Below, piece after piece: positions 49,806 through 53,684 of a stretch of DNA of 64,000 bases; the stretch's first letter is position 1, and every line of letters starts with the position of its first letter. Position numbers and translations under genes: made by a program. The DNA comes from an uncultured Oligoflexia bacterium (GTDB taxonomy: Bacteria > Bdellovibrionota > UBA1018 > UBA6935), in assembly GCA_964013565.1 (NCBI GenBank), contig CAXGWU010000011.1, forward strand, positions 121-64,120. The letters run 5' to 3'. The notes beneath the pieces are model-generated. The model ran no database searches. It saw only the letters and a list, made by a program, of their open reading frames with translations, and was not told the DNA's origin.

Positions 49806-51887
49806 TTACTGAATGACTTTTTGTGTTATTTTTGTTGCCGGATTAAACTCTTGACTTCTTGTGAGATGTTTCATTTTTAAGAAATGATATGCTTCTTGCA
49901 GCGTGGACCAGTTTTGATTTGAAAAAAAAGTCAATCCTTTTTGTTGAGCAGCTCTTCTCTTTGCAGCTTCTCCGTGGATGGTTCCGATTTTCCCATTTTC
50001 TAAAATATGACCACTTGCACTCCATTTTTTTAACTGACTTTGATAGAGAGTATTTTTTAAAGAAAGAGAGAGTTCAATGAATGCTAAAGCAAAAGCTAAT
50101 CCACAAGATTCTGTTTGAGCAACTTGATAATTCTCGTTTTCACTAGAACTTATAAAAAATGTGTAATTATTTAAGTTTTTAGTTGAAGGACAGGTTTTTA
50201 TAAGAGTTTTAATTGTGGAAATAATGGTGTTTTGAAGTGATCTCGATAGGTGATCTTCAAAATGAAAATTTATTTTTGAGGAATAAGATTTTTTTATTTT
50301 AATTTGAAATGGAATTTGAATGGCTTCAGTTCCTTTTTTGTTACATGCTAATAAATGAATTTTTTTCCTTTGATCAAAAGAAGATTCTAGATGACTTACT
50401 CTAAAGATAGTATATTTTTTTGACCACAGTTCTAAGATAGACTCAAAGTAGATTCTTGTTTTTGAGTCAATGTGAACATCTGGTTCATCAATAAATATAA
50501 ATCTAACATTTTTATCTAAACTTTGAATGATTCGGATAAGTGAAAATACAAAAAGCTCTCCTGACGATAGATTTTTTTCTTTTTTTAAAGAGACAAATAC
50601 TGTTTTAAATTTATTTAACCAAAAATTAATTTCTTCTTGAGAAAGATTTTTTAATTCTTTTTCTATTTTTATTTTCATTTTTTTCCAGTTTAAAGAAATG
50701 GGTGAAATCTTCTCGGGTCGAGAAACAAGTGATCTATATTTTCCGTGAATTTGATTTTTGATTATTTCGATATGTTCTCTTTTCCAATATTGGTATTCTG
50801 TGCAGTGTCCTTTCCAAGCTTCTATTAATGTTGATTTTCCAGAACCATTTTCTCCATGAATCCATTGAATGCCTAATTGAGGTGTGAATGATACTAAGCT
50901 TTGATCTAATAGTTTAAATTCTATAGGAAAAAGTTTTTTTTGAACCCGCGGTTTTTTATCTACTGAAATTAATATTTTTTCTTCCAATGACGAAATTTGA
51001 TTTTTTAAAGAATGATATTCCTGTTTTTGAATGAGTAGTTGTCTCAGTGCATTTAATCCTTCCATTAGATATTCTGTGACTCCAAACCAAATAAATGCAG
51101 ATTTAATGTCTAATTTTCCTGTAAAACAAGAGTACATTGTAATTACAAAGCAAATTAAAAACGGTAGATCTAAACTTAATTTAGATAACCCATCTTTTTT
51201 AAAAAGATTTAAATGAAGTTTTTTTTGAATTGAAAACCAAGAATTCCCACAGTTTTTAACCCAGTCGAGATAATTTTCTAAATGAGAAAAATTAGAATAA
51301 ATTTCGGAATTTCCTCTAAAAAAACTAGATATCCAAGTGAGTAATTCTGATTTTGATTTTTGTAATTGATTAATAATTTTTTTATATTGATTATGGTACC
51401 ATTTTCCGCTTATGTAAGAAAATAATGTAAGAATAGGGATATACGTGACTCCAGTCCAGTATTGATCGCTAATAATGATTGTTGAATAAATTACTGTAAC
51501 TGAAATAATTGTTGAAATTAAAGTGATTTTTTCAAATTTCAAATTTTCTATTCGATTTCGTTGTTCTGAATAATAGAGATAGACTTTGTCGTAATCATTT
51601 TTAATTTGATGATTTACAAAAAGGGGAAAAAACTTTCTCCAATGAAACTGAACTTCATTTATTGACCATGTAGATTTAAAAAATTCCCTGATAGATAAAA
51701 TAAAGTGAGCAGATAAGTGCAAGATAATTACGAAGACTGTAAGTAAAATAAAGGATTTTAAGTTCAATTTCTTTTCTACGATTCCACTAATCCATTCACT
51801 TTTTTGTGAAACCATTAAAAAATGAAGAAAAAAGTAAAAGAATGTAAATGCAATTAAAAGTGCAGATTTTATTTTATACCGATTCAT
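49806..51887 (-). CDS. ABC exporter (fused TMD-NBD) with C-terminal Lon-type (S16) peptidase-like domain
   Basis: N-terminal ~5 TM helices. Walker A GENGSGKST, ABC signature LSSGE, Walker B FIFIDEPDVHID and H-loop RVSH. C-terminal ~150 aa read TESCGLAFALAFIELSL…WSASGHILENGKIGTIHGEAAKRRAAQQKGLTFF, paralleling Lon DGPSAGxxMxTALxSxLT…VAMTGEITLRGxVLPIGGLKEKxLAAHRxGI (Ser-Lys dyad). Confidence 0.6.
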   Translation of the reverse strand: MNRYKIKSALLIAFTFFYFFLHFLMVSQKSEWISGIVEKKLNLKSFILLTVFVIILHLSAHFILSIREFFKSTWSINEVQFHWRKFFPLFVNHQIKNDYDKVYLYYSEQRNRIENLKFEKITLISTIISVTVIYSTIIISDQYWTGVTYIPILTLFSYISGKWYHNQYKKIINQLQKSKSELLTWISSFFRGNSEIYSNFSHLENYLDWVKNCGNSWFSIQKKLHLNLFKKDGLSKLSLDLPFLICFVITMYSCFTGKLDIKSAFIWFGVTEYLMEGLNALRQLLIQKQEYHSLKNQISSLEEKILISVDKKPRVQKKLFPIEFKLLDQSLVSFTPQLGIQWIHGENGSGKSTLIEAWKGHCTEYQYWKREHIEIIKNQIHGKYRSLVSRPEKISPISLNWKKMKIKIEKELKNLSQEEINFWLNKFKTVFVSLKKEKNLSSGELFVFSLIRIIQSLDKNVRFIFIDEPDVHIDSKTRIYFESILELWSKKYTIFRVSHLESSFDQRKKIHLLACNKKGTEAIQIPFQIKIKKSYSSKINFHFEDHLSRSLQNTIISTIKTLIKTCPSTKNLNNYTFFISSSENENYQVAQTESCGLAFALAFIELSLSLKNTLYQSQLKKWSASGHILENGKIGTIHGEAAKRRAAQQKGLTFFSNQNWSTLQEAYHFLKMKHLTRSQEFNPATKITQKVIQ

Positions 51888-52872
51888 TTTCTATGATCTC
51901 TTTTAGAAATTTTTTCAAGAAAAAATCTTCTTTTGAATTTAAAAGCTGCTCTTTCTCATTTTTGTGATACCAAGCCCACCCAGGACCAGGATTTGCTTCT
52001 AAACAATAGTATTTTTTTTCTGGAGTCTCAATGAAGTCTATTCCAATGAGACTATTTTTTTCAATTTTAGATAAATTTTTACAATAATCTAATAAAGATG
52101 ATTCTATAGACATTTTCTTTAATTCACCTCTTTCTGAGGCATATCTGTAATCGACTGAACTTTTTCCTCTTACGCATAATCCATAAGCTTTGTCTTTAAG
52201 GAAGTGTATTCTAACGTCATCTCCGGTTATTTTTTCTTGAAATAAAGTAGGAATATTCTTCACAGGGGAGTAATCCCAGTGTCTATAAGATTTATTGTCA
52301 ACGACCAAAGATCGAACTCCTGAAATTGATTTTACAATCCAGTTTTTATTTATAGTTTCTTTTTTAATTTTTTCAGGATTTCCTTTTTTTATAAATGTTT
52401 TCGGAATTTTAATGTTGCTATTAGTTGTTTTATTTAAACTGAAAACCATTTGGAGCGGTTTTGATTCATTTGTCATCATCTTTTTGGGTCTGCACCAGAC
52501 TTTATCTGTGCAGGTATTTAAAACTTCCAAGAAATTTGAAAAATTTTCAAATCTTGGATCATCAGAGGAAATTACTGCACCTCTGAAATAAATACTATTT
52601 GCTTGGTATTTATTGTTTTCTATTAAAAATGTAATTTTTTTACCAGAAAACTGATAGTTCCATTTTATGCATATAGATTCGATTGGGAGAATGATTATCA
52701 TTCGTTCTGTTTTTAACTCTTCTATGAGCTTTATAACAAAGTCATCGGATGGACCTATAATGATCAATGGTTTTAATTTTCCTGTTTTAATTCTTGGATT
52801 TTCTTTGTTTTTTAATATTCGAGCACCTTTAACTTTTGGGATATGAGATTCTGGTATGAAAGTGTTTTTCAT
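51874..52872 (-). CDS. ATP-grasp ligase (RimK/MdnC-like)
   Basis: WIVKSISGVRSLVV ATP-binding lysine region. C-terminal IGIDFIETPEKKYYCLEANPGPGW, matching the ATP-grasp E-x-N Mg-binding motif. The gene overlaps the ABC gene by 14 nt and shares ATGA with the upstream gene. Confidence 0.65.
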   Translation of the reverse strand: MKNTFIPESHIPKVKGARILKNKENPRIKTGKLKPLIIIGPSDDFVIKLIEELKTERMIIILPIESICIKWNYQFSGKKITFLIENNKYQANSIYFRGAVISSDDPRFENFSNFLEVLNTCTDKVWCRPKKMMTNESKPLQMVFSLNKTTNSNIKIPKTFIKKGNPEKIKKETINKNWIVKSISGVRSLVVDNKSYRHWDYSPVKNIPTLFQEKITGDDVRIHFLKDKAYGLCVRGKSSVDYRYASERGELKKMSIESSLLDYCKNLSKIEKNSLIGIDFIETPEKKYYCLEANPGPGWAWYHKNEKEQLLNSKEDFFLKKFLKEIIENESV

Positions 52873-53684
52873 AAACTACACTCCTTGAGTAATTTTTTTA
52901 ATTCACTTTTAATAAAATTTTTTACATTGTGATTTTTTGACAAGAGATAAGGGTTTGCTGATGCAAATGTGATATTTTCTTTATCTACAAAAAATAAATA
53001 TTCTAAAATATCTACTTTTAATTTAGATGCAATTTTTTTTGTATAATTTAGTACTCTTTGTTGGATTTTATCTTTCGGTTCTGTTGTGTAGGTTTCATTT
53101 AGGAATGAGTAGCTAAAGTATGGTCTTCCTTTTGGCTTTTCTATAATAAAATTTGTTTTTTGATTTTGATTATTTACACTCCAGTTAAAATAATTATAAA
53201 TATTCGTTTTTATTGTATTTGGTTTATTTGGTTCTGATAGGTCTTGGTGACCGATAGAGTAAGGAGGTGTTTTAATTTTTATTTTATCTGCTATTTTCCA
53301 TTGCTCTAAAAGAGAAAATTGATTTCCAGTAAGACTAAAATATTTTGATGGTGAAAGTGATTTTTTGAACTGACTAAGAGAAAATAAAAAGTATGATTGA
53401 ATTTCTCTTGATAATTGATTTTGGTCATTCAGATCAAATTTATTTACTTGAGATAGACTTGTGAGTCTATTTACTAAAAAAGTATTTTCATTAGAAATTT
53501 TTTTATTGTTCTTAAGTGTCCATCTAATTTTAATATGATCATTATCAATTTCGTCATCAATTTCTATATATTGAAGGAAGTCGAATAAACTAACCATCTC
53601 AAACTGTTTAGACAGTTTAGGATCTTTAAAAATTTCAGATACAATTAAGTCGTCTTGATCAGAATAAAGGCATACGTAGTTCAT
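52869..53684 (-). CDS. Second, shorter ATP-grasp-like ligase
   Basis: FIIEKPKGRPYF aligns to the lysine loop of the neighbouring ATP-grasp. VDILEYLFFVDKENITFASANPYL matches the E-x-N motif. 271 aa. Confidence 0.45.
   Translation of the reverse strand: MNYVCLYSDQDDLIVSEIFKDPKLSKQFEMVSLFDFLQYIEIDDEIDNDHIKIRWTLKNNKKISNENTFLVNRLTSLSQVNKFDLNDQNQLSREIQSYFLFSLSQFKKSLSPSKYFSLTGNQFSLLEQWKIADKIKIKTPPYSIGHQDLSEPNKPNTIKTNIYNYFNWSVNNQNQKTNFIIEKPKGRPYFSYSFLNETYTTEPKDKIQQRVLNYTKKIASKLKVDILEYLFFVDKENITFASANPYLLSKNHNVKNFIKSELKKLLKECSL

Follow-up and report, generated by a model that had tools for sequence, protein, structure and literature searches.

A graspetide-like gene cassette of an Oligoflexia bacterium pairs a predicted ATP-grasp macrocyclase with a putative non-catalytic partner of the same fold

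Gene content of the locus

We analyzed a stretch of 64,000 nucleotides (nt) of contig CAXGWU010000011.1 from an uncultured Oligoflexia bacterium (the window), in which two adjacent genes encode ATP-grasp-fold proteins of 271 and 332 amino acids (aa), designated A271 and B332, respectively. They belong to a compact cassette on the minus strand with the gene order precursor peptide, 163-aa protein, A271, B332, and 693-aa protein (Table 1); all of these proteins were annotated as hypothetical, and the sequence was traced to a marine metagenome-assembled genome of Bdellovibrionaceae/Pseudobdellovibrionaceae. Our analysis indicates that the cassette probably combines one active ligase, B332, with a non-catalytic ATP-grasp-fold partner, A271, acting on a precursor with SDGKEGG repeats.

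A preliminary description of the locus had placed both open reading frames (ORFs) and had proposed that they are translationally coupled to each other and to the exporter gene; this was confirmed. Direct reading of the sequence revealed a 4-nt ATGA overlap (52869–52872) between the stop of A271 and the start of B332, and a 14-nt overlap (51874–51887) between B332 and the 693-aa gene, with the ATG of the latter at 51887 and the stop codon TAA of B332 at 51874–51876. A271, B332, and the 693-aa ATP-binding cassette (ABC) protein are thus tightly coupled. An AGGAG Shine–Dalgarno sequence was located 8 nt ahead of the B332 start, within the 3′ end of A271. A271 and the two genes upstream of it each have their own Shine–Dalgarno sequence and follow gaps of 12–15 nt, that of the precursor being AAGGA, 9 nt upstream of its start.

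A271 and B332 are real genes and not chance ORFs, because they have homologs (131 cluster representatives at E ≤ 1e-3 in an exhaustive search for A271, mostly of 270–300 aa, and 44 for B332), ratios of nonsynonymous to synonymous substitution rates (dN/dS) well below 1, and an A-to-B overlap recurring in relatives. The cassette probably has its own transcript, starting in the gap of about 230 nt ahead of the precursor gene, because a terminator-like hairpin closes the preceding gene of 164 aa. The promoter scan gave a result no better than that for shuffled sequence.

Table 1. Features of the cassette and of its surroundings in the window.
Feature	Position	Strand	Length	GenBank accession	Description
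A271	52869–53684	−	271 aa, ATG start	MBN22825.1 (hypothetical protein)	Predicted catalytically dead ATP-grasp-fold protein (putative pseudo-ligase partner)
B332	51874–52872	−	332 aa, ATG start	MBN22826.1	Predicted graspetide-type ATP-grasp macrocyclase, active site intact
N-terminal short motif of B332	52813–52872	−			MKNTFIPESHIPKVKGARIL; family consensus TFIPxxxRPxVxGxxL, variable linker next
Precursor peptide	54204–54386	−	60 aa	MBN22823.1	Leader ...LQSIYFGIGG, core SDGKEGGSDGKEGGSDGVEGG, C-terminus ...GFSF
163-aa protein	53700–54191	−	163 aa		N-terminal signal-like segment, repeated GGVI beta-rich motifs; conserved cassette member
693-aa protein	49806–51887	−	693 aa		Hydrophobic N-terminal region, ABC-type ATPase (residues ~320–515), C-terminal Lon (S16)-like domain
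Lon-like domain of the 693-aa protein	49806–50400	−	~180 aa		C-terminal part of the protein
Terminator-like hairpin	54618–54639	−			Ends upstream 164-aa gene; consensus scan, pattern match only
Cys-rich protein	49332–49748	−	138 aa		Signal-like N-terminus; after the ABC gene on the same strand
RimK-like ATP-grasp gene	58881–59786	−	301 aa		Apparently genuine; within the region 57862–60250

The ligase B332

Judged from its sequence, B332 is a graspetide-type ATP-grasp macrocyclase, for which ring formation is predicted: it is similar to characterized macrocyclases, has their motif set, and is encoded beside a precursor. Family models recognized it poorly. Pfam gave only a sub-threshold match to the YheC/D ATP-grasp family. 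The best NCBIfam matches were three models of ATP-grasp maturases of peptides made by ribosomes and modified after translation (RiPPs), TIGR04187, TIGR04192, and TIGR04185, with MvdC named among them; all were far below the curated cut-offs (37.6 bits against a cut-off of 350 for the graspetide models). Searched against the PDB as a single sequence, B332 matched PsnB (E 6e-7) and, weakly, MdnB. A family profile of 14 members matched PsnB (E 1e-12), AMdnB (1.7e-5), and MdnB (6e-5) and nothing else at E ≤ 0.01; these three are the only solved relatives of B332 by sequence.

Residues K181, S182, S184, R187, Q212, G217, R221, and H223, the segment D241-Y-R-Y244, and residues D279, E292, and N294 were invariant across 36 relatives of B332, and all nucleotide, Mg, and DYR-loop residues were intact in B332 itself. 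It shares the ATP lysine, the Q hinge, the Arg213 equivalent, the D(F/Y)R loop, and the D...E-x-N motif with PsnB, MdnC, MdnB, AMdnB, CdnC, and PruB. By HMMER alignment, the PsnB counterparts of R221 and D241-Y-R243 are Arg213, which holds the ring-forming carboxylate, and the DFR233–235 loop; mutation of either abolishes macrocyclization (10.1101/2021.03.09.434688).

Fold and catalytic residues of A271

The relationship between A271 and B332 was visible only by profile–profile and structure comparison. A word-indexed search with A271 returned only the self-match, and neither A271 nor its family profile matched Pfam, NCBIfam, or PDB sequences; none of 101 family members had a Pfam or NCBIfam match. 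BLASTP and phmmer comparisons of A271 with B332 and its homologs gave nothing significant (E 1.9). HHalign, however, aligned the A family (103 members) with the B family with a probability of 86.9% and an E-value of 4e-6, collinearly over 225 columns. The AlphaFold2 model of A271, obtained with the family alignment, had a mean predicted local distance difference test (pLDDT) score of 94.5 and a predicted template modeling (pTM) score of 0.91. The first 18 matches of this model in a Foldseek search of the PDB were all graspetide macrocyclases (AMdnB, CdnC, MdnC, PruB, MdnB, PsnB), the top ones with E-values from 1e-10 to 3e-7 and template modeling scores of up to 0.67; RimK and D-Ala-D-Ala ligases came next.

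The catalytic residues of B332 were mapped onto the 103 members of the A family. The ATP lysine K181 is replaced by T160 in A271 and by Ser, Thr, or Gly in the family, with Lys in only 14 of the members. The SGxRS loop and the DYRY segment are deleted both in A271 and in the family. Hinge residue Q212 corresponds to I181 (Phe, Tyr, Val, or Ile in the family), R221 to F190 (hydrophobic), D279 to L230 (Leu), and E292 to A241 (Gly or Ala, never Glu), while the position of N294 is occupied by N244 in A271 and by Ser or Asn in the family. In the models of A271 and of an A–B fusion, strands and helices follow one another in an order that agrees with this mapping. As compared with graspetide macrocyclases, A271 has the ATP-grasp fold and lacks the ATP lysine, the Mg ligands, the D(F/Y)R loop, and the equivalent of Arg213. 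On this alignment, A271 is an ATP-grasp fold with every catalytic residue group substituted or deleted, and is predicted to be completely degenerate as an enzyme. The equivalent of Arg72 of PsnB, which contacts the core backbone, is kept in A271 as R73 (88 of 103 members).

Several assignments of the preliminary description can be revised on this basis. It took both proteins to have an ATP-grasp fold, which stands for A271 by the profile alignment, the structure model, and its Foldseek matches, and its idea of a partly degenerate partner was right in direction and too cautious in degree. The stretch IIEKPKGRPY, read there as the lysine loop, aligns instead with the FQExxxGxDxR hairpin of the ligases, from which A271 retains the structural Gly alone. 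The DKEN stretch is not the E-x-N motif; its true equivalent is A241-S-A-N244, where Glu is lost.

Selection and conservation of A271

A271 is functional and under purifying selection despite its dead site. In unsaturated pairs of related loci, dN/dS was 0.17–0.24 for A271 and 0.08–0.16 for B. Of 351 pairs of loci, 87% showed lower conservation for the A protein than for B; the divergences of the two were correlated (r = 0.89). The status of a pseudogene was rejected for A271 at a dN/dS of about 0.2.

Near-invariant residues of the A family are W55, N72-R73, D87, E94, Y98, L125, Q128-W129, P140, W168, P184-x-G186-x-P188, E228, L230, F232, and F240. The most conserved stretch of A271, D87–F106, forms a long helix (residues 88–104). 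In PsnB, the α3–α4 helices are the center of the dimer (10.1101/2021.03.09.434688), and the helix of A271 may correspond to them.

The A–B partnership in related genomes

A scan with the B profile, limited to a single genome of each species, yielded 33 loci. They were found in Legionella, Legionellaceae, Coxiellaceae, other gammaproteobacterial metagenome-assembled genomes (MAGs), and Psychromonas, as well as in Waddliaceae, Parachlamydiaceae, other chlamydiae, Bacteriovoracaceae, Pseudobdellovibrionaceae, and Oligoflexia. Contigs with B homologs from a metagenome and from Legionella nautarum had the same cassette. All B-derived loci that held enough sequence contained both A and B; the A protein is thus strictly co-occurring with the ligase, like the non-ligase proteins of partner-dependent graspetide systems. 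Where A precedes B, the genes overlap by 4 nt (Bdellovibrio-like bacteria) or 13 nt (most Legionellales). In chlamydiae, the precursor comes first, then B, and, after a gap of about 550 nt, A.

Five proteins (P0056, P0086, P0091, P0097, and P0119) are natural A–B fusions. The AlphaFold2 model of one of them (P0097, 592 aa) had a pLDDT of 89.2 and a pTM of 0.91, the latter indicating a confidently fixed arrangement of both halves in the predicted geometry. Six A-family members were also sampled across the range of E-values. An ATP-grasp-type gene was located just downstream in four of them, and upstream of a fifth (L041), on a short contig, lay the end of a B gene. The sixth, a distant A-like protein of 294 aa (L039/L040; L039 578–5870), has as neighbors a 372-aa protein with a HESTH motif, a 130-aa PDZ-like protein, and two MacB/FtsX permeases. 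It may represent a dead ATP-grasp fold recruited to another peptide system.

A second type of fusion, in which a motif-intact ATP-grasp module (B′) is joined to B, was found in P0009, P0014, P0016, P0019, L033 (2995–4704), L037 (2835–4574), and L042 (6074–8008). These cassettes retain a separate A gene and additionally encode an arginase-family or related protein of 382–406 aa. They contain three ATP-grasp-fold modules per system, and their precursor is rich in Lys and Asp (..IDFGVW..GKSKDGKD..SKD..) and ends in F-x-F.

Where A and B are separate proteins, B starts with the peptide TFIPxxxRPxVxG, which is nearly invariant and precedes a variable linker; F5, I6, P12, and G16 were invariant in 14 split B proteins. 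This peptide is missing from the linkers of the A–B fusions. In the B′–B cassettes it is encoded by a small ORF between A and the arginase-family gene (L033 1517–1786, L037 1461–1697, L042 4519–4866). From this distribution, the TFIPxxxRP peptide is a candidate docking peptide for A.

Precursor and other proteins of the cassette

Small ORFs of the precursor family were found beside the A/B pair in 35 of 37 loci. The family has a short leader ending in hydrophobic FFG or YFG, an invariant SDGKEGGS(D/E)GKEG core, a variable stretch, and a C-terminal aromatic-x-Phe. The precursor of the window contains SDGKEGG three times and the leader motif IYFG. The C-terminal aromatic-x-Phe resembles the C-terminal signature of outer-membrane beta-barrel proteins. 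Homologs are spread over Legionellales, chlamydiae, Bdellovibrionota, and Psychromonas (L001–L038), with three tandem copies in Psychromonas (L028); such low variability of the core is unusual for a RiPP. A literature search with the SDGKEGG string gave nothing, and neither this string nor the Legionella and MAG accessions were found in the searchable text of two large graspetide surveys. From Legionella, the accessible part of Makarova et al. 2022 (PMC8939145) gives only the neighboring GG-leader precursor Lnau_2330 and no SDGKEGG peptides. In Legionella nautarum (L002 8637–13026), a second, already catalogued graspetide cluster is located directly downstream of the cassette; it comprises the precursor Lnau_2330, a third ATP-grasp protein of about 370 aa, an HlyD-like protein, and a C39-ABC exporter. 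This third ATP-grasp protein also occurs in L008–L011 and L030.

The 163-aa protein, presumably secreted, aligned with neighbors of 180 and 179 aa in L001 and L002; a homolog was found in L033, and another member in L038. No Pfam family was matched by the 163-aa protein, and a weak Bactofilin-like match was obtained for the Legionella copy only.

The 693-aa protein is a probable exporter and peptidase, as suggested by its domains. It matched Pfam ABC_tran with 31 bits and was homologous over its full length to a 709-aa Oligoflexia protein (L033, E 3e-44), the C-terminus of which matched Pfam Lon_C above the gathering score (L033 6521–6736). The Ser (ESCG) and Lys (AAKRR) of the 693-aa protein align with the Lon dyad positions of this homolog and are retained. 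The homolog in L037 (4558–6699) had a weak Lon_C match. The ABC protein of Legionella nautarum has only 534 aa; a candidate source of the Lon-like domain there is a separately encoded protein of 165 aa (L002 3931–4428), proposed from a reading of its sequence and not matched by Pfam.

Two further genes of the window were noted. The 138-aa Cys-rich protein had no family match and was not seen in the related cassettes examined. The RimK-like ATP-grasp gene, matched by the B-family hidden Markov model with an E-value of 1.5e-14, is flanked by genes of 155 and 333 aa in the same orientation and is unrelated to the cassette.

Proposed function and alternatives

In the proposed mechanism, B332 would be the only ATP-grasp ligase capable of catalysis in this graspetide-like cassette of five genes. 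Most likely, it would use ATP to activate Asp and Glu side chains in the SDGKEGG repeats of the precursor and would close the activated carboxylates onto Ser hydroxyls and/or Lys amines in the manner of PsnB and MdnC. A271 would be an ancient paralog of the ligase that kept the whole fold and lost ATP, Mg, and acyl-phosphate chemistry. Produced in fixed stoichiometry with B332 via the ATGA start/stop overlap, it would bind B332 as a non-catalytic subunit, most likely giving a hard-wired asymmetric pseudo-dimer in place of the ordinary homodimer of graspetide ligases, in which the core peptide is held by one subunit at a time. Asymmetry is also seen in the PsnB dimer, only one subunit of which contains the core peptide (10.1101/2021.03.09.434688). 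The A subunit would stabilize B and/or help to hold the precursor, and the N-terminal TFIPxxxRP peptide of B332 might tether A. We infer the physical complex, the need of B for A, the reaction chemistry, and the pattern of the rings; the partner may contribute as a dimer surrogate, a substrate holder, or a docking hub.

Several observations weigh against this mechanism or limit it. The catalytic mapping consists of a profile alignment of 86.9% probability and a matching order of secondary structures. The geometry of the putative pseudo-dimer was judged from the pTM of the fusion model of P0097. The 294-aa A-like protein, one of the six sampled, has no ATP-grasp gene within 7.8 kb. Chlamydial precursors are leaderless (they start with MGWSSDGKE), yet A is kept, which speaks against A as a simple leader-binding module; a role of A271 in leader binding only was dropped for this reason. 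Finally, L033, L037, and L042 keep a separate A although the ligase is already fused to an intact B′; therefore, the role of A cannot be only that of the second half of a ligase dimer, and A may act rather as a scaffold or hub.

The last point leads to the possibility that A271 is mainly a substrate handler, which binds the precursor at the FFG leader motif, the acidic and Lys-rich core, or the aromatic-x-F tail at the C-terminus and passes it on to B332 and other enzymes, acting as a hub through the TFIPxxxRP docking peptides of its partners. Consistent with this, the TFIP peptide of the B′–B cassettes is on a small ORF ahead of the arginase-family protein and not on the ligase; R73 is among the few ligase residues that A retained; many conserved residues of A are acidic or aromatic and of surface type; and CorC, CorD, and MirC provide precedents of proteins that bind the precursor or activate the ligase (PMC13097080). 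However, a fixed A:B body is favored by the A–B fusions found in nature and by the high pTM obtained for one of them, and leaderless precursors are still accompanied by A. We consider this explanation possible and rather doubtful as the main role; it overlaps with the pairing of an active ligase with a non-catalytic subunit and does not exclude it. In a broader and equally tentative version, A271 would found a family of pseudo-ATP-grasp scaffolds, combining a permanent heteromer, a TFIPxxxRP docking hub, and a new class of envelope- or host-directed graspetides. If so, the transient half-of-sites asymmetry of graspetide ligase dimers would have been made permanent, and the hub would dock the ligase here and the arginase-fold enzyme in the variant cassettes. 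The product would be an unusually conserved graspetide class with cross-linked SDGKEGG repeats and an aromatic-x-F end like that of outer-membrane proteins; its makers, host-associated or predatory diderms (Legionellales, Chlamydiae, Bdellovibrionota), would suggest a conserved envelope- or host-directed role.

Three other explanations fit the data much less. B332 might be a RimK-like ligase adding amino acids to a peptide, for instance at the conserved C-terminus or at Glu side chains, with A271 as its regulator; relatives are annotated as RimK-like in the source, a weak match to TIGR00768 was obtained (E 3.7e-4), and the strictly conserved C-terminal aromatic-x-F of the precursor would otherwise be unexplained. 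This is improbable: the match reached 19.9 bits against a cut-off of 143.4 for alpha-L-glutamate ligases of the RimK family, the B profile found only graspetide macrocyclases and no RimK in the PDB at E ≤ 0.01, two hallmarks of graspetide enzymes (the D(F/Y)R loop and the equivalent of Arg213) are invariant, and the core repeats nucleophile and acid residues like those of other graspetides. It is highly improbable that A271 is another active ligase, one whose site has diverged strongly and which makes a type of cross-link different from that of B332 in the style of MdnB/MdnC. Its fold, the tandem overlapping genes, the Ser and Lys nucleophiles of the core (making two bond types conceivable), the alignment of Asn244 with the Asn of E-x-N, and the conserved acidic E228 close to the Mg site would agree with it. 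Against it, seven residue groups for ATP, Mg, and acyl-phosphate that are invariant in the ligases are all substituted or deleted in A271 and about 100 relatives, including the Glu of E-x-N in every case and the ATP lysine in most; the DFR loop and Arg213 equivalent, whose mutation kills PsnB, are absent; and natural second active modules (B′ of P0009, P0014, P0016, P0019, and L033) keep all motifs. Hardly credible at all is a decaying duplicate without function. The faster evolution of A271 as compared with B332 and its lack of a database family would be expected of one, but the dN/dS values, the family-specific invariant residues, the fusions to the ligase, the intact ORFs over four phyla or classes, and the very confident fold prediction contradict it. 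The preferred explanation remains one active ligase with a non-catalytic ATP-grasp-fold partner.

Comparison with known systems

Known graspetide clusters likewise combine a small precursor containing Ser/Lys and Asp/Glu repeats with a transporter. The usual RiPP exporter has an N-terminal C39 domain, while the cassette transporter has a C-terminal Lon-like domain instead. The precursor, with its FFG leader, SDGKEGG repeats, and C-terminal aromatic-x-F, resembles no listed graspetide group. Known graspetide macrocyclases are homodimers of active subunits; here, a dead paralog accompanies a single active subunit and is in some cases fused to it.

The MdnB/MdnC (MvdC/MvdD) pair is likewise encoded by two adjacent ATP-grasp-fold genes beside a precursor and an ABC protein. 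In that pair both ligases are active and share out ester and amide formation, whereas A271 has no catalytic residues. Microviridin precursors have a PFFARFL leader and a TxKxPSDx(E/D)(D/E) core; the precursor of the window has neither, and only B332 keeps the catalytic set. The pair is not a dual ligase of the MdnB/MdnC type, because A271 fails every catalytic test, and the ester versus amide specialization suggested in the preliminary description is not supported. Equating two ATP-grasp genes with two types of cross-link would mispredict the product.

Graspetide ligases were thought to act alone until the first partner-dependent cases in 2026. In the myxomiditide system, MyxD2 works only when bound to MyxD1, for which a structural or organizing role was proposed (PMC12848669, 2026). 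MyxD1 is itself an active lactam-forming isozyme, while A271 has lost its active site and belongs to a sequence family of its own, some members of which are fused to the ligase. In the rosaritide and corallotide systems, MirC and CorC strictly co-occur and co-purify with the graspetide synthetase and activate or stabilize it (Carter et al. 2026, PMC13097080). The logic is the same as that proposed for A271; however, partners of the MirC/CorC type (a SurA-like chaperone and a 2-oxoglutarate oxygenase) are unrelated to the ligase, whereas A271 is a putative dead copy of the ligase fold, with about 130 sequence clusters and no Pfam or NCBIfam family. Makarova et al. 2022 (PMC8939145) reported a truncated inactive ATP-grasp protein beside an active one in the precursor-less loci of branch 8; A271 differs in that all three domains of the fold are kept and a clear precursor is encoded at its locus.

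A non-catalytic partner is also known from azoline-forming cyclodehydratases, in which the C-protein and YcaO (D-protein) occur split or fused, the former being a relative of an ATP-using enzyme fold that acts as the peptide-binding subunit of the active enzyme. The folds and chemistry of that pair are unrelated to those of A271 and B332, and the C-protein is homologous to E1/ThiF and not to its catalytic partner. The A–B pair offers a natural system for studying why dimeric graspetide ligases work with only one of their active sites at any moment and how pseudo-enzymes originate in pathways of peptide natural products. Current models miss or under-call the A271 family and its ligase; therefore, genome mining likely overlooks the cassette. 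To our knowledge, there is no description of a conserved, full-length dead paralog that is coupled to a graspetide ligase, in some cases within one protein, and accompanied by such a precursor family, and the locus appears to represent an undescribed peptide gene cassette common to Legionella, chlamydiae, and Bdellovibrio-like bacteria.

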